DNA of 35,939 nt, from contig JBDSYI010000507.1 in the NCBI GenBank assembly GCA_039925745.1, positions 1 to 35,939 on the forward strand. Reading direction: 5' to 3'. How positions within the stretch are numbered: position 1 is the stretch's first letter; every line of letters starts with the position of its first letter. The position numbers and the translations under genes were made by a program. The notes beneath the pieces were generated by a model that was given only the letters and a program-made list of their open reading frames with translations, did no database searches and was not told the origin of the DNA. The stretch comes from Casimicrobium sp. (GTDB taxonomy: Bacteria > Pseudomonadota > Gammaproteobacteria > Burkholderiales > Casimicrobiaceae). This document shows positions 12,406 to 32,193 of the stretch, in pieces.

Positions 12406-12963
12406 TTACACGCGCTTCTTGAACTCATCGGTACGCGTATCGATCTCGATCACGTCGCCCGTGTTTACAAACGCCGGAACCGGGATCTCGAAACCCGTTC
12501 CTTTGAGGCGTGCAGGCTTCATGACCTTGCCGGAAGTGTCGCCACGAACCGCAGGCTCGGTGTACTCGACTTCACGAACCAGCGTGGTCGGAATTTCAAG
12601 GCCGATGGCGCGTCCGTCGTAGAACGTGACCTCGCACGGCATTGCGTCTTCGAGGTACTTGAGCGCGTCGCCCATGCTGTCTTTTTCGATGTCGTACTGG
12701 TTGTACTCCGCATCCATGAATGCGTACATCGGGTCGTTGAAGTAGCTGTACGTGACTTCTTTTTTCTCTAGCATGACGACTTCAAATTTGTCGTCCGCCT
12801 TGAATACGGTTTCAGTGCCACCGTTTGAGAGCAGATTCTTCAGTTTCGCTTTAACGACAGCGGCGTTGCGGCCCGATTTTGACAGCTCGGCCTTAATGAC
12901 AACCATCGGCGCGCCGCTGATCATGATGACGTTACCAGTGCGGAGTTCAGATGCGAGTTTCAT
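12406..12963 (-). CDS. efp: Elongation factor P, Arg32 (rhamnosylated) type
   Basis: [10 protein letters not shown] loop, [25 protein letters not shown]. Adjacent to earP. Confidence 0.97.
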
Positions 12964-13064
12964 AGATTAATTTTTAGAGGTTACGCGCCTGAAACGTTCG
13001 GATTCAATCGCGACGGACACGATCAATGGGACTGGCGCTGGTTTTCGTAGCAAAGCCTTTAATT

Positions 13065-14093
13065 TTAGCTAATTTTTTGCTTTGTCTGCGAATTTAGGAA
13101 TTTGAGGAGACGCGTGGCGAGGTCGGTTTCGGCGAATAAGTGGTCGCGCCAGCGGCTGGCGTGAGCCGCAAGTGTGGGTAATTGCCTGGCGAAACCGGCG
13201 TAGACGGCTGCGTCCACGTCACCGCGATTGAAGGCGTGGTGAGCACGTGTGAGCGCGTCGGTGGCATCAGGTGCGAGGCCTTCACAATAACGATCCAGCC
13301 ATGCGTCCAGCTTGATGAAATGGGCATTGTCCGGGGTCGGGTAGATATGCCAGAGAAACGGCTTTGCTGCGTACTGGGCGCGCAGGAAGGAGTCCTCGCC
13401 CCGCACCACAAGGACATCGAACTCGCCGAGGAGGGCGTCGAATCGGGTTTGTGCGACGGGCGCGGTGGCGAACCACGCTGGGTCGGCGTCGTCGAGTTTG
13501 CACGATGTCGTGACATGGCCTTTAAGGGCAGTGGCGAACGCGCGTACGGGGGCATGCGGGTAGGCGAAGGCGAATAGGTGCGTCGCGTTGTCATCAGCGC
13601 ACTTGGTTCCAGTCGAGGAAACGGCCGCCAAACCGCGCTCCCGGATCAGACCGCCACTTGCCGCAGTAAAACCCGGACAGAAAAAATACTTCGTCAACGG
13701 AAGCCTCTGATGCGCCGAGGGAAGTCCGTGCACGCCGTCAACCCACGCCTCTGCAGTGAGGTATTCGAGGTTGATCCAGACTGGCTTTTCGGTGAGCGCT
13801 GCCATTGCTTCGACATACGCCGACGGCGGGTCGCAGGCAAAGGCTTCAATCACAACTTCGGCGGGCGGCAGCGCGTCGGAAATGCGCCACGCAATAACGT
13901 CCACGCCGAGCAGATTTTGCTGCGTCAACGTCGGGTCAATCTCCGGCGCAACGAATCGAAACGCTTCGAGATCGTCAACGATGAGCCGGACTTTGCAGCC
14001 GCGTTCAACGACTAGCTGTCGGGCCAATCGCCAACAAACGCCGATGTCGCCATAGTTGTCGACGACATGACAGAAAAGGTCAATTGAAGGCAT
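13065..14093 (-). CDS. earP: EF-P arginine rhamnosyltransferase
   Basis: DLFCHVVDNYGDIGVCWRLARQL, IEAFAC, WINLEYL.AE.WV, VRGEDSF.RAQ, W.IYP. Upstream of efp. Confidence 0.95.
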   Translation of the reverse strand: MPSIDLFCHVVDNYGDIGVCWRLARQLVVERGCKVRLIVDDLEAFRFVAPEIDPTLTQQNLLGVDVIAWRISDALPPAEVVIEAFACDPPSAYVEAMAALTEKPVWINLEYLTAEAWVDGVHGLPSAHQRLPLTKYFFCPGFTAASGGLIRERGLAAVSSTGTKCADDNATHLFAFAYPHAPVRAFATALKGHVTTSCKLDDADPAWFATAPVAQTRFDALLGEFDVLVVRGEDSFLRAQYAAKPFLWHIYPTPDNAHFIKLDAWLDRYCEGLAPDATDALTRAHHAFNRGDVDAAVYAGFARQLPTLAAHASRWRDHLFAETDLATRLLKFLNSQTKQKIS

Positions 14094-14156
14094 CAGCTTT
14101 TGCGTAAAAACGCCATAAATCAAGGGCTAAGGCCTGAAAATTACTAAAGTCGATAT

Positions 14157-22936: not shown

Positions 22937-23698
22937 TTACGGCTTGGCAGATAGCGTAATGTCGCCAAACCTTGCGCTGGCTTTTTCACCCGTGTTGTCG
23001 GTATCGACCATGATGGCGATGCCAGAAATTCGTGGCGGCTCTTCTCCAAACGCGCGCTTGTAATCGTCGTAAATGTCGCGCGCGAACGACTTCCATTTAC
23101 CGATAGCGGCCGGATCAGCATCAACCACGATTGATTTCACGCGCTGGGTATACGGGCTGGTGATGATAGTGCCCAGAGCAGCTTTGTGCGTGAAGACGTA
23201 TGCCAGTGCGGCGTGTGGTGGCGTTTCACCGTACAGCGCATGGGCAATGGCGTTTTCTGCTCTTTCTTTGACGCTTGCGTGTTCAGGATCCGTGGCGAAC
23301 GTGATGTAGATCCGCGCTACGTAGTCATCGAATGCCTTGCTTCGGGGATCGCTCGTCGCAATCAGATTGCCGGGTTTCCATTTGAATCGAAGCATGGCGC
23401 TGGCGCGCGCATCGCCATCAAAACGGTAGGTCAGCGCACCTGCGGCGGCGTCCGCCACGGCTTCAAGCACCGTTGTACCAAGCTCATCGTCACGGACAAA
23501 GGCATAGCGGGTAAATTGTTTGGCACTGCGAACGGGTTGAAAGCTCCATTCCTGCGGCGAGGTTCCGGGTGCTTTGCTGGAGAAGCGCGGAATTGCCGCG
23601 GCACTCGGAGCGACAACATCAGCCGCCATCGCTACCGAGACAATCGTAGGCAGCAGGAATGAGCCGGTCGCTAAAAGGATCTTCGCAAAATTTGCCAT
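22937..23698 (-). CDS. DUF3047 family secreted protein
   Basis: Signal peptide ending AMA. L.F.WK, DDYVARIYITF, L.YV, W...RD...DYKRAFGEEPP.I.GIAIM.DTDNTG motifs. Confidence 0.85.
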   Translation of the reverse strand: MANFAKILLATGSFLLPTIVSVAMAADVVAPSAAAIPRFSSKAPGTSPQEWSFQPVRSAKQFTRYAFVRDDELGTTVLEAVADAAAGALTYRFDGDARASAMLRFKWKPGNLIATSDPRSKAFDDYVARIYITFATDPEHASVKERAENAIAHALYGETPPHAALAYVFTHKAALGTIITSPYTQRVKSIVVDADPAAIGKWKSFARDIYDDYKRAFGEEPPRISGIAIMVDTDNTGEKASARFGDITLSAKP

Positions 23699-24993
23699 CG
23701 GGATACTGCTTCCGGCGATGCCTTGCCGTCAAAATTCAGATGCTCACACACGTTGGCAAAACGCGCCATCAGGTCGTCGTGATCAGCCCCGCCCATATGG
23801 ACGAGCGCGTAGCGATAGGTACCCAGCCACTTGGTCTCGCGCGCGCGCGAGGTGCTGTGCTTGATGTCCAGAAAGAGCTTTGCATCAGGATAGGTGTTTG
23901 TTAACCAACGCTGGTCGTGATCAGGGGGGGGCTGCTTAACAGCGTCACCAAACTCCCGGAAGACAAAACTGGCTGCAGCGCCAAATTTACCGCCTCGACG
24001 GGGCCAAACCGGCACTTTCCCGAGCGCAAGGTCAAGTTCGAGCGCCCACAAACTCTTGCCATCCACGCGTTCATATAAATCAGAGAACTGACCTGCCATG
24101 CGCGGGTTAATTTCGATGATCGTAATGCGCTCCGTCTTTGGATCGAAAAACAATTCGACATTGAACAGGCCATGTGTTAGCCCCACGGCTTCGACCGCCC
24201 GTTTGGCAACCGCCTCAAGCTTTTCGACGTAATGGGCAGCGAGTTGCGACGGATATTCGAAACGCATAAACGCGTTCGTACCCGGATACATGACCGAGTC
24301 GACGGTGCCAAGAATGGTTACTTTACCTTTGTGCGCATAACCGTCAACGCAAAACTGCAGCGCGCCATCGACACTGCCCTCTGCAATGAAGCAATCAGCG
24401 TCAATTTCGCAGTCAATGTGTTTAACCGAGACGCGGCGAAACGGTCGGGTCAGCCGTTTGATGATGATTTTTTCCCAGACCCGAAACTTCAAATGCGAGC
24501 GCAGGGCGGCCTCGTCCTTGCACCGCTTGGCCAACACCGAGAATGCTGCCTTGACCGGTTTCACGAAGATCGGGTAGTCAATCGTGATGGCGTGACTCAC
24601 ATCCGCGTCATAACGGAAGCCGCAGAACGGCGGAACATTGGCGGGCATAACGTCACGATGGATTTGTCGTGCCAGATATTTGTGTTGCGCCGTGAGCAGG
24701 CCTTTCAACGGCGTGCCTGGGAGCCCGAATTTTTCTGCAAACAGGCTCGCGGCGAGTGCGCCGAACTGCTCGTGCGTAGACACGACAGCGACGATTTTTC
24801 GGGAGCGAAATTTGCGTGCCAGATTCTCGACGAACCACTCAACGTTGAACCAAAGCAGACGGGCATTCGACGGGAACGTAAAAAGATCGAATCCGGCGCG
24901 CACGAACTCGTATTCGCTGTACGCAATCTCAAGCGGCGCGAGCGCAAGATCGTCATATTCCTGCGCAAAAAGGACGAGGACGACGGGCTTCAT
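23671..24993 (-). CDS. ATP-grasp ligase of unknown specificity
   Basis: HKYLAR, PIFVKPVK..FS, FIAEG, GLFNVELF, IIEINPR. Start at MKPVV preferred; ORF extends to 25032. Confidence 0.85.
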   Translation of the reverse strand: MKPVVLVLFAQEYDDLALAPLEIAYSEYEFVRAGFDLFTFPSNARLLWFNVEWFVENLARKFRSRKIVAVVSTHEQFGALAASLFAEKFGLPGTPLKGLLTAQHKYLARQIHRDVMPANVPPFCGFRYDADVSHAITIDYPIFVKPVKAAFSVLAKRCKDEAALRSHLKFRVWEKIIIKRLTRPFRRVSVKHIDCEIDADCFIAEGSVDGALQFCVDGYAHKGKVTILGTVDSVMYPGTNAFMRFEYPSQLAAHYVEKLEAVAKRAVEAVGLTHGLFNVELFFDPKTERITIIEINPRMAGQFSDLYERVDGKSLWALELDLALGKVPVWPRRGGKFGAAASFVFREFGDAVKQPPPDHDQRWLTNTYPDAKLFLDIKHSTSRARETKWLGTYRYALVHMGGADHDDLMARFANVCEHLNFDGKASPEAVSRWQILRRSF

Positions 24994-25045
24994 CGTCACC
25001 TCAAATGTGGCGGGCCGTACAGGCCCATGCAATGGTGAACAAAGG

Positions 25046-25864
25046 CTACTTCTTGTCGTTCAGATTCCAGTCGTAATCGAGATACGAAATGTCGACCTTT
25101 CCGGTTTTGATCTCGGCCTGCGCTGCGGCGTCGGCGGAGAGATTGTCCGCATACTTGCCAAGCGTAGCTTCGAGCGAAGTGAAACCTTTGTAGCCTTTGG
25201 TGAAATCCTTTTTGTACCAGTCGAAAATCTTGCTGATTTCGAGCGTTTTCTTCCCGGCGTTGTAGCGATTGCGTGATTTGTCCGAGAGGAAACGCCGCAT
25301 ACCATCGTCGAGTTGTGCGTCAACTTTTTCCGCAGTGAAGGCTTCGTTGCGCAACATTGGACAGCCAATCGATGCACACACCACGCCAACGTGAATGCGC
25401 GGATCATTGAACACGCCTTCAGCGCGGATCATGTCGTGCTCAATGCCGTCAAGCGTCATCTCTTTGCCAAACAGTTTGAAAAACTTGATGCTCCATGGCT
25501 TGGTAAACGCACCACCCAAATCACGAATGGACTTGAGGTTGGGGTATTTCGTGAGGATCAGCTCAATTGTGTACGCGTTGTAAGCATTAATCAGGAACGC
25601 AAGCTGCTGATTCTTGTTCCAGCTTTTGTACGTCGCTTCGGAGACGGCGGACACTGAATTAAGGTAGGCGGTCAAGGCGGCGTGATCGCGCAAGACACCA
25701 GCGTAGGAAAGCTGTGACGCGTTGCCACCGCTGATGTAGGTGACGTGCTTCTTGAGCAAATCATCAAACGCTTTATGCGATTGATCGAATTGGGCGAAGG
25801 CGGTGGAGGCGATTAGCGCAGCGGCCATCACAAGTAATGTCTTCAGAAATTTCATTTTTGTCAT
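25046..25864 (-). CDS. DUF547 family secreted protein
   Basis: Signal peptide ending AFA. QLAFLINAYNA.T, TLD.IEH..IR, DPRIH..VCASIGCP.L, SKIFDWY..DF, YDWNLN. Confidence 0.88.
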   Translation of the reverse strand: MTKMKFLKTLLVMAAALIASTAFAQFDQSHKAFDDLLKKHVTYISGGNASQLSYAGVLRDHAALTAYLNSVSAVSEATYKSWNKNQQLAFLINAYNAYTIELILTKYPNLKSIRDLGGAFTKPWSIKFFKLFGKEMTLDGIEHDMIRAEGVFNDPRIHVGVVCASIGCPMLRNEAFTAEKVDAQLDDGMRRFLSDKSRNRYNAGKKTLEISKIFDWYKKDFTKGYKGFTSLEATLGKYADNLSADAAAQAEIKTGKVDISYLDYDWNLNDKK

Positions 25865-25876
25865 TCTTTCGTCGAT

Positions 25877-25963
25877 AGGGTGTGCATCAAAATGCGCACC
25901 ATCGTTGCGCTTGTCGCGGTATGGAGATTACGACCAACTGGTGCGCACTTTGGTGCACACCCT
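25877..25963. repeat. 25-bp inverted repeat, REP-doublet-like
   Basis: AGGGTGTGCATCAAAATGCGCACCA (25877-25901) and TGGTGCGCACTTTGGTGCACACCCT (25939-25963) are complementary at 23 of 25 positions. Confidence 0.75.
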
Positions 25964-25979
25964 GCGTCGGTGGGGCGAC

Positions 25980-28133
25980 TTACCCCCGCTCCCACGTATG
26001 AAACTTGGCCACCCATTCGAGCAGCTTGGTCGGTTGATGGTTCCGTTTCCATACACCTGCCGCGAATTTATTAGCCTCGCCGAGCGTCGGATAGGTGTGA
26101 ATTGTGCCCAAAATTTTGTTCATGCCGAGGCCATATTTCATCGCGGTGACGTATTCGACAAGAATGTCGCCGCCGTGATCACCCACAATAGTCGCGCCCA
26201 GAATCGTGTCCTTGCCAGGTACCGTCAACACTTTCACGAAGCCATGCGCCTCGCTGTCGGCAATCGCGCGGTCAAGGTCATCGAGGCCGTACACCGTGAC
26301 TTCATGGGGAATTTTCTTTTCTTTTGCTTCCGACTCGGAGAGGCCAACACGTGCCACTTCGGGGTCAGTAAACGTGGCCCATGGAATGACGCGGTAGTCG
26401 GCCTTGAATTTCTTGAAACGACCGAAGAGCGCGTTTACCGCGGCATACCAAGCCTGATGGGCGGCGGTATGGGTGAACTGGAACGGTCCGGCGACGTCGC
26501 CACAGGCATAGATATTCGGGTACAGCGTCTGTAAAAAATCGTTAGTTTCAATAGTTTTGTTCGGACGCGTCGGAATGCCCAACTCTTCAAGTCCGAAGCC
26601 AGTGACGTTTGCCGTGCGTCCAACGGCGACGAGGATCTGATCAAACGGAACCCGCACGTCCGCGCCATTGTGTTCGCAGACGAGAATCTTCTCGCCGTTT
26701 TCAATCACAACCTGTTTAGCTTTGTGTCCAGTCAGCACTGCGACGCCGTCTCTTATGAACGATTTCGTGACTAACGCTGAGACTTCCGGATCTTCTCGCA
26801 ACAGGATTCGCGGTGCCATTTCAATCTGCGACACCTGCGAGCCAAATCGCGCAAAGCATTGCGCCAGTTCTGAGCCGATCGGCCCGCCGCCTAGTACCAC
26901 CAGGCGTTTTGGCAGTTCGCGAAGATTCCACACGTTGTCGCTGGTCAGATACGCGATGTCAGCCAGCCCCGGAATCGGCGGCACGAAAGGCCGCGCCCCG
27001 GTGGCAATCACAATGTTTTTGGTCGTCATCGTCGATTTGCTGCCGTCCGCCGCCGTGATCTCCACGGCCCAGGGCGAAACTATCCGCGCGCTTCCAGTGA
27101 CACAGTCCACACCGATGCCTGTATAGCGCTCAACCGAATCATGCGGTTCAATCTCACGAATAACACGTTGCACGCGTTCCATCACGTCAGCAAAATTCCA
27201 CTCGGCGGATGCGCTCTTCAACCCGAACTCTTCGGCGCGCTTCATGTGCGACAGAAGCTTTGCTGTTTTGATCAATGCTTTTGAAGGCACACAACCCGTG
27301 TTCAGGCAATCGCCGCCCATCTTGTGCTTTTCGATGAGCGTGACTTTTGCCTTAACCGCAGCCGCGATGTAGCTGGTCACCAAACCTGCGGAGCCCGCAC
27401 CAATCACGATCACATTGCGATCAAACGACTTCGGCTTCATGCTGGCAAATCGCGAGTAAACCTTGCGGCCTTTCAACCAATCCAGCACTTTCTTCGCGAT
27501 GATCGGGAAGATACCCAACAATGCAAAAGAGCCCAAAATCGCGGGAGAAATGATGCCCTTGAGCGAACTAATTTGCGCGAGTTGAGTGCCCGCGTTCACA
27601 AAGACCGCCGTGCCTGCCAACATTCCAAGCTGACTCACCCAGTAGAAGGGCCAAGTCTTAATCGTCGTTAGCCCCATCACCAGATTTACCACGAAGAACG
27701 GGAAGAGGGGAACCAAACGCAGTGCAAACAGATAAAACGGCCCGTCCTTTGCAACGCCATCATTAATGGGTTTCAATCGGTCACCAAATTTGCCCTGCAC
27801 CCAGTCGCGCAGCAAAAATCGCGACGAGAAAAACGCGAGGGTGGCACCGACTGCCGACGCGAACGACACCAGGACGACGCCTTCAGCAAAGCCAAAGATC
27901 GCGCCGCCAAGCAACGTCATCAACGCTGCACCGGGCAAAGACAGCGCCGCCACCGCGACGTACGCGACAAAGAAGCCCACGGCACTCTGCACCGGGTTTG
28001 CTGCTACATAGGCGGCGAGCGTCGCCTGCTGCGCCTTGAAGGCATCAAGACTTAAAAACTGCCCCAGATCAAAGAAGAAGAATGCCCCGATTGCAGCCGC
28101 GATCACGACCAGCAACGCTATTTTTGATTTCAT
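25980..28133 (-). CDS. Fusion of a DedA/TVP38 (VTT) membrane domain with a flavin pyridine nucleotide-disulfide oxidoreductase
   Basis: N-terminal LSLPGA..MTLLGGAIFG and LRLVPLFPFF.VN. Then GAGSAG, GGDCLNTGCVPSK, ATGARP, GGGPIG.E, IYACGDV, FTDPEVA.VG, HTYPT. Confidence 0.92.
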   Translation of the reverse strand: MKSKIALLVVIAAAIGAFFFFDLGQFLSLDAFKAQQATLAAYVAANPVQSAVGFFVAYVAVAALSLPGAALMTLLGGAIFGFAEGVVLVSFASAVGATLAFFSSRFLLRDWVQGKFGDRLKPINDGVAKDGPFYLFALRLVPLFPFFVVNLVMGLTTIKTWPFYWVSQLGMLAGTAVFVNAGTQLAQISSLKGIISPAILGSFALLGIFPIIAKKVLDWLKGRKVYSRFASMKPKSFDRNVIVIGAGSAGLVTSYIAAAVKAKVTLIEKHKMGGDCLNTGCVPSKALIKTAKLLSHMKRAEEFGLKSASAEWNFADVMERVQRVIREIEPHDSVERYTGIGVDCVTGSARIVSPWAVEITAADGSKSTMTTKNIVIATGARPFVPPIPGLADIAYLTSDNVWNLRELPKRLVVLGGGPIGSELAQCFARFGSQVSQIEMAPRILLREDPEVSALVTKSFIRDGVAVLTGHKAKQVVIENGEKILVCEHNGADVRVPFDQILVAVGRTANVTGFGLEELGIPTRPNKTIETNDFLQTLYPNIYACGDVAGPFQFTHTAAHQAWYAAVNALFGRFKKFKADYRVIPWATFTDPEVARVGLSESEAKEKKIPHEVTVYGLDDLDRAIADSEAHGFVKVLTVPGKDTILGATIVGDHGGDILVEYVTAMKYGLGMNKILGTIHTYPTLGEANKFAAGVWKRNHQPTKLLEWVAKFHTWERG

Positions 28134-28244
28134 GTGTGCTCTTTTGGCTTTTAATACCGCTAACGAATCGCTCAAACGACGACTCTAAAGGCGGTTTTAG
28201 CGCTTTGTCGTCCCGCTGTCGGAGAAACTTACAGGTGATTGAGG

Positions 28245-28652
28245 TTATCGCAAAAAGCGCTGCAATCGACTGTCGACGTGGCGCAATATCAGTCCTAGCG
28301 GCGACAGGCTGATCAGCAGGGCACCGGCGACCCCCACGCCATTTGCAAACGCGTCGTGCCAGTCAAATTGACGATTGAAATAGGGCTGGATAAATTCGAT
28401 GCCAACCCCGAGCGCTATTAGCGCTACGGCGACCACCAGCCGCATCCGTAGTGGCACGTAAATCTGCGAAAAATAAGCCATCACAACAAAGTACGTCCCT
28501 GCGTGCCATAACTTGTCTGACTCGCCAAGCGGCGGCAACGCCTTTGCGGGTGCCAGCGAGCCGTAGAGCAGTAGCACAACGAGAAAGGCACCCATCGTAA
28601 GCCATAGCCTTTGGTACGCGAGGCCCGAGTTACGAAGCGCCGAATCGGTCAT
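28245..28652 (-). CDS. VanZ-like membrane protein
   Basis: SDKLWHAGTY, GIEFIQ...R.FDW.D..AN..G motifs. Confidence 0.82.
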   Translation of the reverse strand: MTDSALRNSGLAYQRLWLTMGAFLVVLLLYGSLAPAKALPPLGESDKLWHAGTYFVVMAYFSQIYVPLRMRLVVAVALIALGVGIEFIQPYFNRQFDWHDAFANGVGVAGALLISLSPLGLILRHVDSRLQRFLR

Positions 28653-28723: not shown

Positions 28724-29725
28724 TTAAATCCTGAATGACTCCAGGGACTCCGGCGCGAACAATTCCTCGAGCGAGAGTTGTCTTTTCGACAGCCCTTGCT
28801 CAAAGTGGTAGCGTGTGAACGTTTCCAGCGTCTTGCGATTCTTGTCGAGTCCGTAGGGCCACCAGTCTTCACCCATTTCCCTGCGAGCCTCTTCAACGTG
28901 CGCGACGAGCCACGGCAACATCGATTTAAGCGCAGCGGTTTCGGCGAGGTCTTCGTAGGTTTTCTGTTGCGCCGCGTAGAACGCTTTGGTTAGCGACTGC
29001 GCGATCCAGCGGTTAGCTTCGTATACCTCGCGGCGCATCACAATCGTGTGCATGATCGGGAAAATGCCTGTGTCGCGCCAGTACGCACGTTCTACTTCGG
29101 CATAGTTTTCGAATAAACGTTTGACCTTGCCATCGTTACGTTTGAAAGAGGAGGGCATGCGCGCCGTGTACAGCGCATCGATGTCGCCATCGTGCAGCAT
29201 TTGCGACAGCGTTTGTGTCGGTCCGATAGCTTGCAGCTTGATGCTTGGTGGTAAGTCGAGCTTCAACTTTTCTACCCGACCTGTCTCTTCTTCGCCTCCG
29301 AAAAGGTATGGCTGCCCACCCGCGTTGGCGACTGGTACGCCGTAATGATCCTGCAAAATTCCGCGAATCCAGACGGGCGCTGTCATCTGATATTCCGGGC
29401 TGGCGATGCGCTTGCCGATCAGATCTTTAGGTTCGTTGATACCGGAAGTCGCATTAATGTAAATGGATGAATGGCGGAAGAATCGCGACGGAAAAATCGG
29501 CAGTGCCACAAACAGTCGTTCGGGTCGATTCAGCGATACGCAGTACGACGACAAGGACATCTCTGCGACATCAAATTCACGATGGCGCGCCATGCGAAAG
29601 AAGGTTTCTTCGACTGGCAAGCAGAGGTAATTCAAGTCAATGCCATCCGCCTGTACCGATCCATCGAGCAGCGCCCGCGTGCGGTCATAATTCCAGCAGG
29701 CAAAGCTTAGTGTTAGTTTAGACAT
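28724..29725 (-). CDS. ophC: 4,5-dihydroxyphthalate decarboxylase (periplasmic-binding-protein-like fold, cytoplasmic)
   Basis: YDRTRAL.DG, EETFFR, FDVAEMSLSSY, FPSRFFRHS, PEYQMTA.VW.RG, IFPIMH, D.WPYG. No signal peptide. Follows ophA2. Confidence 0.82.
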   Translation of the reverse strand: MSKLTLSFACWNYDRTRALLDGSVQADGIDLNYLCLPVEETFFRMARHREFDVAEMSLSSYCVSLNRPERLFVALPIFPSRFFRHSSIYINATSGINEPKDLIGKRIASPEYQMTAPVWIRGILQDHYGVPVANAGGQPYLFGGEEETGRVEKLKLDLPPSIKLQAIGPTQTLSQMLHDGDIDALYTARMPSSFKRNDGKVKRLFENYAEVERAYWRDTGIFPIMHTIVMRREVYEANRWIAQSLTKAFYAAQQKTYEDLAETAALKSMLPWLVAHVEEARREMGEDWWPYGLDKNRKTLETFTRYHFEQGLSKRQLSLEELFAPESLESFRI

Positions 29726-29773
29726 AGGTAGGAATCATTTGTTGGCATTGAGCGAGTAGGGCGGACGCTGTGC

Positions 29774-31105
29774 CTACGACTGTACGGGCGTTGTATACGA
29801 CGGTTCCAACGCAGGGGCGGTTTCATCCCAAACGTAGCGCGTCGGATAGGTTCGCCAGTCGGTGGTCTTCGGCACAATCGCCTGAAACGCGCACACCGAT
29901 GTCGGAATGCGCAAATCGCCTGTGCCAATTGCGATCTCGCCAGTCTGAAACGCTTTCACTGCATCCAGCATCAGTTTGCGAAATTCAATGATTGCCAGGT
30001 CGCTTGCGCCCAGCCGCTCATGCGTTCGATCCGCGATCGGTCCCATCGTTACCCACATAGCAATGTCCTGATTTGGGAAGCCGGTAATGCCGGTGAAGTT
30101 TCCTGCCTTCATCGCATCACGATCCTGCCAGAAATTGTTTTCACGATTACGTAACGGGTGATAGGTTGCGTCCAGATCAACCCCCACTGTTTGTCCCAAA
30201 AATTTGCGCCAGGTCGTGCTGTCTGGCGTGCGGCTTTTGTGCCCCCACGCCATGAAATAAAACGCTGTGTTGCTGTCGTCCATCGGTACGTTGATATTGG
30301 CAACGTTGTACAGATTGTTCGGTGGAATCAGCGTTGTTGCGGGCGCGACGAACACACTTGAACGCACGTAGTCATTGCTCGCCGCGTTCATGATTGGGCG
30401 GCGAATGGCTGCGTAACGAAAACCATACACGGTGCGCTCAACCTGCAAACGCGGCGCCTTGTCGGTGGACGGGCGCAGCCAAGTCGTCTCGGTAGTTTGT
30501 GCCGTCGCTACACGTGCGGGCACCATGTCGGACGAATGCAGACTAGAGCTGTGTGCCGAGTCAATTGCTCCTTCCAGAATTTGCGCCCAGTTACAGGGGA
30601 TGATCGCTTTGGCAATCGTCACCTGCGCATCAGCGGTTGGCGCCCACGCGGGTGGCGTAAAGCTCGGCATGGTCGCGGTGCCGTGATCCGCGCCCATGTA
30701 TGCCCACACAAAACCGCCCCATTCGCGAACCGGATACGCTTTGTGCTTCACTTTTTGCGCCGCCACGCTAGCGGCAGGCTCCGACACCATCTCGATCACA
30801 TTGCCCTTCACGTCCATCTTCCAACCGTGATACAGGCAGCGCAAACCGCAATCCTCATTGCGACCGAACACCAGCGACACGCGGCGATGAGGGCAATACT
30901 CGTCCATCACACCCACGTCGCCGTTAGTGTCGCGAAACACCACCAAATCCTCGCCGAAGACGCGCGCCTTTACCGGTGCGCCATCAGGTTCGATGACCTC
31001 GTCAATCAGGCATACCGGTGTCCAGTGACGCCGCATGAGTTGGCCCATCGGCGCAGAGCCTTCGACACGACACAACAATTCGTTTTCGTCATGGCTCATC
31101 ATCAT
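29774..31105 (-). CDS. ophA2: Phthalate 4,5-dioxygenase oxygenase subunit (Rieske)
   Basis: Rieske CPH...CLYHGW. Mononuclear site NWAQILEGAIDSAHSSSLH and GFPNQDIAMW. N-terminus ENELLCRVEG.APMGQ closely resembles Burkholderia/Comamonas phthalate dioxygenase as I recall it. Confidence 0.88.
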   Translation of the reverse strand: MMMSHDENELLCRVEGSAPMGQLMRRHWTPVCLIDEVIEPDGAPVKARVFGEDLVVFRDTNGDVGVMDEYCPHRRVSLVFGRNEDCGLRCLYHGWKMDVKGNVIEMVSEPAASVAAQKVKHKAYPVREWGGFVWAYMGADHGTATMPSFTPPAWAPTADAQVTIAKAIIPCNWAQILEGAIDSAHSSSLHSSDMVPARVATAQTTETTWLRPSTDKAPRLQVERTVYGFRYAAIRRPIMNAASNDYVRSSVFVAPATTLIPPNNLYNVANINVPMDDSNTAFYFMAWGHKSRTPDSTTWRKFLGQTVGVDLDATYHPLRNRENNFWQDRDAMKAGNFTGITGFPNQDIAMWVTMGPIADRTHERLGASDLAIIEFRKLMLDAVKAFQTGEIAIGTGDLRIPTSVCAFQAIVPKTTDWRTYPTRYVWDETAPALEPSYTTPVQS

Positions 31106-31147
31106 TGTGTGGCTCGCGTGGTTATCATCAGATTGGGCGAAACTATA

Positions 31148-31161
31148 CTTAGTTGACTAAG
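31148..31161. promoter_or_regulatory. Candidate OphR (MarR) operator CTTAGT-TG-ACTAAG
   Basis: Perfect 6-bp arms in the 104-bp divergent gap, overlapping a TATACT hexamer at 31144-31149. Confidence 0.7.
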
Positions 31162-31209
31162 ATAAATGAGCGTTATAGAAAACGCAAGCCCGCATCACGA
31201 AGGAGTGAA

Positions 31210-32193
31210 ATGACAAGCTCAGGAACATTTGAGAACGTCGAACTGGAACGTTTTTTCGATGTTCGCGTCGCTGGCAAAAGAGCGGTTGCGCGCGACACAT
31301 ATCACTTCGAACTGGTGGCGATGGACGGCGGGAAGTTGCCTGGCTTCTCGCCCGGTTCGCACATCACGGTTGTCACGCCGATCGGCTCACGCCGAAACTA
31401 TTCATTGTGCAGTGACGCGGCCGACACCATGCGCTACGAAATCGCTGTTAAACGCGATATCAACGGGCGTGGTGGATCGATCAGCATAACCGACGACGTG
31501 AACGAAGGCGGAGTCCTGACAATCAGTGCGCCGCGCAATAATTTCGAATTGTCACCGCGAGCGAAGCAGTCGATTTTTATCGCGGGTGGCATTGGCATCA
31601 CACCGATTCTCTCGATGATGCGCGGCTTAAAGCGAGGCGCCAATGGTCATTCATTTGAGCTTTTCTACTGCACGCGTGACGCGGAGTGCACGGCATTTGC
31701 AGACGAGTTGCAAGCAGAATTTCCCGGGCTCGTCACCGTTCACCACGACAAAGGTGACAGTGCCAACGGGTTCGACTTCTGGCCTGTGTTTGAGCGGCCA
31801 ACAGCAGCACATGTTTACTGCTGTGGCCCGAAAGGACTCATGGATAGCGTGGCTGACATGTCCGGTCACTGGCCATCGGGCTCGATTCACTTTGAAAGTT
31901 TTGGTGTGGACGCGAAGTTGTTTTCGGAGAACACTGCGTTTTCTGTGACGCTTCAGCGATCAGGAAAGCGAGTCTTCGTTCGACCTGAGCAGACGCTACT
32001 GGAAGTCTTGCGCGCCGCCGGTTATGTTGTTCGAAGTTCATGCGAAAGCGGCACGTGCGGGTCGTGCAAAACGGGGCTCGTCTCAGGGGCAGTTGAGCAC
32101 CGCGACAGCGTGCTGAGTGATGATGAAAAAAGGGATCACATCATGGTGTGCGTGTCGCGAGCGGCGGCGGGCGAACTGGTGCTGGATCTGTGA
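31210..32193 (+). CDS. ophA1: Phthalate dioxygenase reductase (PDR/VanB type)
   Basis: R.YSLC, GRGGS, AGGIGITP, VYCCGP..LMD.V.DM.GHW.SG..HFESFG, C-terminal CESGTCGSC...C ferredoxin. AGGAG precedes ATG 31210. Confidence 0.88.
   Translation: MTSSGTFENVELERFFDVRVAGKRAVARDTYHFELVAMDGGKLPGFSPGSHITVVTPIGSRRNYSLCSDAADTMRYEIAVKRDINGRGGSISITDDVNEGGVLTISAPRNNFELSPRAKQSIFIAGGIGITPILSMMRGLKRGANGHSFELFYCTRDAECTAFADELQAEFPGLVTVHHDKGDSANGFDFWPVFERPTAAHVYCCGPKGLMDSVADMSGHWPSGSIHFESFGVDAKLFSENTAFSVTLQRSGKRVFVRPEQTLLEVLRAAGYVVRSSCESGTCGSCKTGLVSGAVEHRDSVLSDDEKRDHIMVCVSRAAAGELVLDL

Follow-up and report, generated by a model that had tools for sequence, protein, structure and literature searches.

A conserved unit of an ATP-grasp ligase and envelope proteins in Casimicrobium sp. 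and its possible link to selenium metabolism

The putative operon discussed here lies at 22937..28652 of a 35,939-nt stretch of Casimicrobium sp. DNA (contig JBDSYI010000507.1), called the window below, and it combines an ATP-grasp ligase with a DedA-reductase fusion and with proteins of the DUF547 and DUF3047 families. An initial annotation had described five co-oriented genes there and had proposed a system for a small thiol or metalloid metabolite. Our check of open reading frames (ORFs) in the window found all five on the minus strand where they had been placed, and the 3' end of the ATP-grasp gene overlaps the DUF3047 gene by the 28 nt that had been noticed (23671-23698). The features are as follows:

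25980..28133, minus strand: fusion of a DedA/VTT membrane domain with a class I flavin disulfide reductase (717 aa, ATG 28133; Pfam)
25046..25864, minus strand: DUF547 protein, predicted to be secreted (Pfam, alignment, model)
23671..24993, minus strand: ATP-grasp ligase, 440 aa (Pfam ATP-grasp_4, alignment, fold model)
22937..23698, minus strand: DUF3047 protein, predicted to be secreted (Pfam, alignment)
28245..28652, minus strand: VanZ-like small membrane protein (weak Pfam match)

All five genes are genuine and under purifying selection; the ratios of nonsynonymous to synonymous substitution rates (dN/dS) against the relative L008 are 0.030 for the reductase, 0.043 for DUF547, 0.058 for the ligase, 0.116 for DUF3047 and 0.227 for the VanZ-like gene. 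Pfam supports the domain labels of the first four in the list, but the VanZ family PF04892 stays below its gathering score (20.7 against 30.1 bits, E 7e-4), and none of the five proteins meets any model in an NCBIfam scan. A promoter and terminator scan of the operon gave signals no higher than those of shuffled sequence. Loci related to the window belong to Burkholderiales. In our genome collection, 11 of 12 loci have the ligase gene flanked by DUF547 and DUF3047 and placed behind the DedA-reductase; the remaining one, a 42% relative, has none of these genes. The VanZ-like gene occurs in L002 and L005-L008 and is absent from L010, L011, L088 and L146, and where it is missing the upstream binding-protein gene abuts the reductase gene. 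Since it is present in the closest relatives only, it lies outside the conserved module, and its inclusion in the system was given up in favour of a local insert. The conserved unit thus consists of four genes: DedA-reductase, DUF547, ATP-grasp and DUF3047.

The ligase most likely starts at ATG 24993, which is preceded by a GAGGT ribosome site, and not at TTG 25032. Its nearest named protein match comes from Casimicrobium huifangae (76%; P0069). Judged from its modelled fold (pLDDT 93.7) and its key residues, the protein belongs to the ATP-grasp superfamily, and the structural class closest to the model is that of the L-amino acid ligases (LALs). The closest solved structure is 3VOT (BL00235), with Z 34.0, a root-mean-square deviation of 3.3 over 369 aligned residues and a Foldseek E of 1e-21; BacD comes next (Z 29.6), BL00235 and BacD/YwfE make up the top four structural matches, and PurK and PurT follow at Z 27-29. 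A single-sequence search of the PDB with the ligase gave 0 matches, whereas a profile search did find LALs. Residues K105, R109, K145, E205, E280, E294, N296 and R298 are invariant in 97 of 97 aligned homologues, and the active site is intact. We take the lysines K105 and K145 to be ATP-binding, E280 and the Glu-x-Asn of E294 and N296 to be metal-binding, and R298 to be the arginine that binds the carboxylate. The roles of an acidic residue and of a carboxylate-binding arginine in ATP-grasp enzymes, as well as the acyl-phosphate mechanism of such ligases, are described in the available part of PMC9486568. The ligase shares the three-domain fold and the catalytic residue pattern of BL00235, BacD/YwfE and RizA; however, its identity to known LALs is 13-17% and it has motifs of its own subfamily, so that LAL substrates cannot be transferred to it. 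In two loci (L002:5127-6488 and L117:6508-7819) the ligase gene is split over two frames by a frameshift or a sequencing error.

The wider ligase family comprises 813 clusters at E<=1e-30 and falls into three groups: the Betaproteobacterial subfamily of the window, a subfamily paired with or fused to CocE/NonD hydrolases, and an intermediate group. The window's subfamily carries the motifs GFDLFxFPxN in the N-terminal domain and KWLG in the C-terminal domain, and F9, W/Y13, F35, F38, F40 and W389 are conserved in it only; we considered that these side chains could form an aromatic cage for a trimethylammonium group. The distant CocE-linked subfamily (L043-L058, L118, L127, L264, L266-L272; P0198, P0148, P0121) is found in Gammaproteobacteria, other Pseudomonadota and Streptomyces, and one of its members is fused to ectoine synthase while another adjoins a glycine betaine transporter. 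It is possibly a separate ligase/hydrolase system for osmolytes.

The reductase unites PF09335 (VTT/DedA), PF07992 (Pyr_redox_2) and PF02852 (Pyr_redox_dim) in one chain. Its CLNTGC motif, pointed out initially, is a redox CxxxxC (C276/C281), and both cysteines are invariant in the alignment. A C-terminal cysteine pair is a feature of MerA; here the last cysteine stands at position 544 of 717 and no such pair follows. The enzyme was rejected as MerA on this ground and on its TIGR02053 score (374.5 against 454.45), and it is below the cut-off of the LPD and GR models too. By Pfam domains, the fusion of DedA to a pyridine nucleotide-disulfide oxidoreductase is shared with bioRxiv 10.1101/2023.01.04.522824, where it is the commonest fusion of the COG0398-type subfamily and where phospholipid scrambling and a link to aerobic metabolism are inferred for that subfamily; selenium, arsenic and the window's neighbour genes are not mentioned in it. 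The earlier idea that electrons pass through the DedA domain found no support, the published inference for this type being lipid scrambling.

DUF547 and DUF3047 each show one N-terminal hydrophobic segment by hydropathy, for which reason their secretion is predicted. In DUF547 the CASIGC pair (C163/C168), also noticed initially, is invariant and lies within the invariant motif R-x-H-x4-C-A-S-x2-C-P, and the alignment holds invariant Y, N, E, R and H besides the two cysteines. The structure model is confident (pLDDT 94.2). Nothing among the PDB sequences fell below E 0.16, and the model had no Foldseek match at E<=0.001, its best match being VIA with Z 5.1 over 91 residues, by which a new fold is not yet proven. 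A confident model and an invariant His/Cys/Cys/Arg/Glu set with no clear solved relative make this protein worth a structure. The alignment of DUF3047 holds invariant Trp, Asp and Arg residues; the protein had no match among PDB sequences and an atlas search returned DUF3047 clusters alone. A predicted complex of the two proteins scored 0.10 against a mark of 0.32 and is not used as evidence. The genome of the window (G000) has a second, stand-alone DUF3047 gene (L143:4118-4927, C22) with a lipoprotein-like N-terminus.

A search of 401 order-level genomes detected the ligase in 51 (G692 is counted in this tally only), and flanks were compared for 39 of the 50 others with markers sought within about 6.5 kb. 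ArsS, TIGR04283, TIGR04282, DUF547, DUF3047 or DedA-reductase counted as ArsS-type markers, and SenA/EgtB-like, SenB, SelD, selenate-type ABC or YHS genes as sen-type markers. Neighbours were labelled by tblastn; the SenA-like label was confirmed over the cut-off in five of them (L105, L107, L114, L158, L164), and one fell below. ArsS-type markers stand near the ligase in 12/39 loci, sen-type markers in 8/39 and either type in 19/39, a number that rises to 26/39 once a recurring methyltransferase or TIGR03169 is added. Among metagenome loci, many of them on short contigs and with the window's own organism (L145) excluded, the counts are 21/79, 30/79 and 46/79. Chance alone would, by a rough figure, place such markers within 6.5 kb in 1% of cases, and class-level loci of the distant groups had a marker in 0/21 cases and CocE in 16/21. 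The full layout met most often runs reductase, DedA, DUF547, [ArsS], TIGR04283, TIGR04282, ligase, DUF3047, [TIGR03169]. The complete genome G1061, drawn separately, reads selD, senB, senA, egtD, ligase, YHS, DUF547 (L265), and the sen loci of the subfamily often hold egtD, the YHS selenoprotein family and a putative selenate ABC transporter. Sen-type loci occupy at least two separate parts of the ligase tree (FastTree, 138 sequences, FastTree support values only).

These loci bear out the initial view that the genes belong to a neighbourhood associated with arsenosugars and selenoneine. The ATP-grasp gene recurs with DUF547, DUF3047 and the DedA-reductase in several other families, so the association is not a peculiarity of this lineage. 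On the other hand, the ligase had been thought to stand instead of glycosyltransferase and radical-SAM genes, while the usual arrangement in relatives has it immediately downstream of these genes.

Several neighbours carry no family name. A 210-aa class I methyltransferase is encoded directly upstream of the ligase or within sen clusters (L098:7890-8534, L090:5155-5802, L241, L242); it was rejected as ArsM, having no invariant cysteine and scoring far under the ArsM cut-off, and it is a candidate selenium methyltransferase. Neighbours of the carboxymuconolactone-decarboxylase family were rejected as TIGR04169, as they score below its cut-off. A 560-aa membrane protein recurs by the ligase in sen-type loci (L158, L160, L162, L164, L195, L199) and a 335-aa protein recurs between arsS and the DedA-reductase (L121, L123, L243, L244), both with no NCBIfam match.

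No sen gene is present among the window ORFs scanned with Pfam and NCBIfam. The partners, which the initial annotation had noted as absent from the window, do exist elsewhere in the genome. On C59 senB (over the cut-off) adjoins a senA-like gene (413.8 bits against a cut-off of 420) and the first part of selD, whose remainder is on C332; arsS stands on C359 (347 bits against a cut-off of 300) and is truncated where that contig ends. Some 1.2 kb upstream of this arsS there are two ORFs that overlap each other and look by eye like transposase genes (L141:2007-2865). The genome also has two YHS-family genes and an egtB-like/egtD pair. The TIGR04283 and TIGR04282 transferases were not found in the contigs of this 92% complete assembly. 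In the complete congener G444 they come directly after arsS, and the genes upstream of arsS resemble those of G000, so the absence is probably an assembly gap. ArsM had no match at E<=1e-25 in G000, G444 or the congener G586, and the 210-aa methyltransferase was not found in these three genomes.

We compared 40 ligase-positive genomes (G000 and 39 others, picked for completeness) with 40 ligase-negative genomes, mostly of the same families, in which a negative can be an assembly miss. SenB scored over the cut-off in 36 positive and 14 negative genomes (39 and 19 at E<=1e-50). ArsS occurs in 37 and 16, TIGR04282 likewise in 37 and 16, DUF3047 in 38 and 18, DUF547 in 37 and 8, and the 210-aa methyltransferase in 21 and 1. 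A SenB-like or ArsS gene occurs in 40/40 positive genomes, and 16/40 negatives have neither. Among the 47 genomes that hold both SenB and ArsS, DUF547 is present in 35/36 with the ligase and in 2/11 lacking it, and in the ten mixed families DUF547 is more frequent alongside the ligase in 7 and less frequent in none (ArsS: more frequent in 5, less frequent in none). DUF547 is the best genome-level co-traveller of the ligase. Three ligase-positive genomes (G707, G694, G767) have SenB or a SenB-like gene and no ArsS, and the ligase is found in 0/5 genomes with ArsS and no SenB.

Literature searches, which covered few subscription journals, gave no description of this ligase subfamily or operon. 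The window's DedA-reductase, DUF547 and DUF3047 are regular members of the arsenosugar neighbourhood (ArsS TIGR04167, TIGR04283, TIGR04282); the ligase of relatives lies inside it and arsS is present in this genome, whereas here the neighbourhood is split in two, and neither this genome nor the two congeners yielded ArsM. In the portions of the literature examined, only the ArsS step is characterised and no ligase is described for it. According to PMC13188914, the selenoprotein families of some organisms include TIGR04167 and the YHS family. The sen cluster resembles the present case in that this genome has senB next to a senA-like gene and selD, and differs in that, according to the main text of bioRxiv 10.1101/2022.04.13.486033, the three-gene SenA/SenB/SenC pathway to selenoneine is complete with no ligase; the term "ATP-grasp" is absent from that text. 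The ash/tgi clusters (NHISS and ATP-grasp, thiohistidine dipeptides), as presented in PMC13674229, are a precedent for an ATP-grasp enzyme that joins an amino acid to a thio-imidazole and is encoded next to the synthase of the latter. However, their synthases are OvoA-like and use histidine and the TgiB ligases are RimK-like, whereas the window ligase is ATP-grasp_4/BacD-like and its subfamily adjoins SenA and EgtD, whose trimethylated product has no free amine. Membership in the tgi family was rejected, the ligase matching Pfam ATP-grasp_4 and not RimK and five of the subfamily's neighbours scoring as SenA over the cut-off. A search of the supplement of PMC13674229 for five terms, with figures outside the search, gave 0 occurrences.

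The best reading of the operon is that it forms the ligase-plus-envelope half of a split gene neighbourhood. We tentatively favour, at somewhat under an even chance, the view that the ligase amidates a molecule of the SenB selenosugar branch and that the reductase-DedA fusion and the two exported proteins handle it at the envelope. The amide-forming chemistry is suggested by the LAL-like fold and the selenium link by gene order and genome profile, while we infer which substrate is used and what the envelope proteins do. A possible route can be laid out, with confidence that falls from its first step to its last. In the manner of L-amino acid ligases, the enzyme would activate a carboxylate as an acyl phosphate and join it to an amine. 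The senABC genes, located elsewhere in the genome, would supply one reaction partner, either selenoneine or a seleno-sugar intermediate, and ArsS and the TIGR04283/TIGR04282 transferases possibly process a selenium intermediate beforehand. Selenoneine has no free amine and so could serve as acyl donor only; a deacetylated selenosugar could be the amine partner. The membrane-anchored flavoenzyme might then keep the selenol reduced with NAD(P)H and its DedA domain might carry the compound through the membrane in a lipid-linked or amphipathic form, after which DUF547, with its cysteine pair, and DUF3047 could bind or process the product in the periplasm.

A number of observations weigh against a selenium role. 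Neither type of marker is near the ligase in 20/39 order-level loci, and the deepest branches of the subfamily as well as the window's own clade have an ArsS-type context in the tree. SelD does not differ between the panels (38/40 and 36/40) and is uninformative as a marker, and of the ten mixed families 5 have SenB more often with the ligase, 1 less often and 4 equally often. SenB occurs in 14 ligase-negative genomes, so selenoneine itself does not depend on the ligase. In the CocE-linked and intermediate subfamilies SenB is found in 4/22 genomes against 2/58 controls, and the strong SenB link thus belongs to the window's subfamily. Fisher p-values overstate the associations because the genomes are related, and SenB, ArsS and TIGR04282 are so strongly intercorrelated that the profile cannot fully separate selenium from arsenic. 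Finally, the ArsM counts, 2/40 with the ligase and 6/40 in the negatives over the cut-off (5 and 12 loosely), come from a search that scored at most 27 candidates per genome.

The main rival reading is that the ligase tailors an arsenosugar instead: ArsS would adenosylate dimethylarsenite, the two transferases would build the sugar and the ligase would add an amide, with the DedA-reductase supplying reduced dimethylarsenic taken from the environment. This is unlikely in our estimate, though it deserves serious weight, as ArsS and TIGR04282 accompany the ligase in 37/40 genomes, and several families, as well as the clade adjacent to that of the window, have the ligase immediately downstream of TIGR04282. 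Additionally, NCBIfam names both transferases for arsenosugar synthesis, and ArsS makes DDMAA from DMAs(III) according to the available part of PMC13598754. Against it stand the 35/40 ligase-positive genomes that lack even a loose ArsM match, the three genomes with the ligase and no ArsS, the five with ArsS and neither SenB nor the ligase, and the repeated placement of the ligase within senA/senB/selD/egtD loci (L158, L169, L209, L219, L265). The arsenosugar pathway requires ArsM, which could be dispensed with here if dimethylarsenic came from outside the cell. Of the broad proposal of a thiol or metalloid metabolite, therefore, the evidence leans to selenium over arsenic, by the fewer ArsM genes with the ligase, the three genomes in which it occurs with no ArsS and the repeated sen-type loci.

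It could also be that the product is a general low-molecular-weight thiol or an antioxidant dipeptide, with the DedA-reductase recycling its disulfide; the selenium and ArsS genes would then cluster with the ligase through a common redox role and not through a common substrate. Members of the wider family do adjoin redox genes (a flavocytochrome c sulfide dehydrogenase, a molybdopterin-oxidoreductase/cysteine desulfurase fusion, a VKOR-family protein and an NAD(P)/FAD oxidoreductase), about half of the loci have no selenium or ArsS markers, and the reductase fits no substrate-specific model. We nevertheless consider this improbable, as the reductase occurs in the absence of the ligase too (L234-L238) and a general thiol pathway would not require the SenB-like or ArsS gene that accompanies the ligase in every positive genome. 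Very improbable is a ligase that is a mere passenger, inherited with its neighbourhood and with no functional tie to it. The congener G586 does retain the other three genes of the unit at this site with no intervening ligase (L248), and the ligase is missing from many ArsS clusters. However, G586 has a different, 45% identical ligase copy elsewhere beside a DedA gene (L104), the same partners are kept through several rearrangements, DUF547 is lost together with the ligase, and the dN/dS of the ligase is low (0.058).

Returning to the favoured reading of a selenium-linked ligase, it has a bolder extension, which we hold to be speculative and rather unlikely: the Betaproteobacterial "arsenosugar cluster" would be a selenium pathway, in which the SenB selenosugar passes through ArsS, the transferases, the methyltransferase and the ligase to a third bacterial class of selenometabolites, amide-conjugated, possibly lipid-linked and exported by the DedA-reductase to DUF547. 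In its favour we cite the 53 ArsS-positive Burkholderiales of the panel, 47 of which have SenB or a SenB-like gene and 13 anything ArsM-like (8 over the cut-off). The arsenosugar label may be unfit for these genomes.

Upstream of the operon, at 28724-32193, lie genes for a LigXa-like Rieske oxygenase, its divergent reductase and a binding protein; the Rieske oxygenase and binding-protein genes are co-oriented with the operon, with gaps of 48 and 71 nt, and this linkage is found in close relatives only. At 12406-14123 the window holds elongation factor P and the rhamnosyltransferase EarP, which are ordinary.

To our knowledge, few selenium-specific small-molecule pathways exist in bacteria (selenoneine, ovoselenol). 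The gene neighbourhood discussed here is known but poorly understood; the ligase subfamily is undescribed in the literature covered and ties this neighbourhood to selenium metabolism, as it genetically joins the sen and ArsS neighbourhoods. DUF547 thereby gains a specific partner, and the finding that most ArsS-bearing Burkholderiales in the panel lack ArsM challenges the arsenosugar label there. The ligase is soluble and suits a simple ADP-release assay, which makes both the selenium question and the question of what follows ArsS directly testable.

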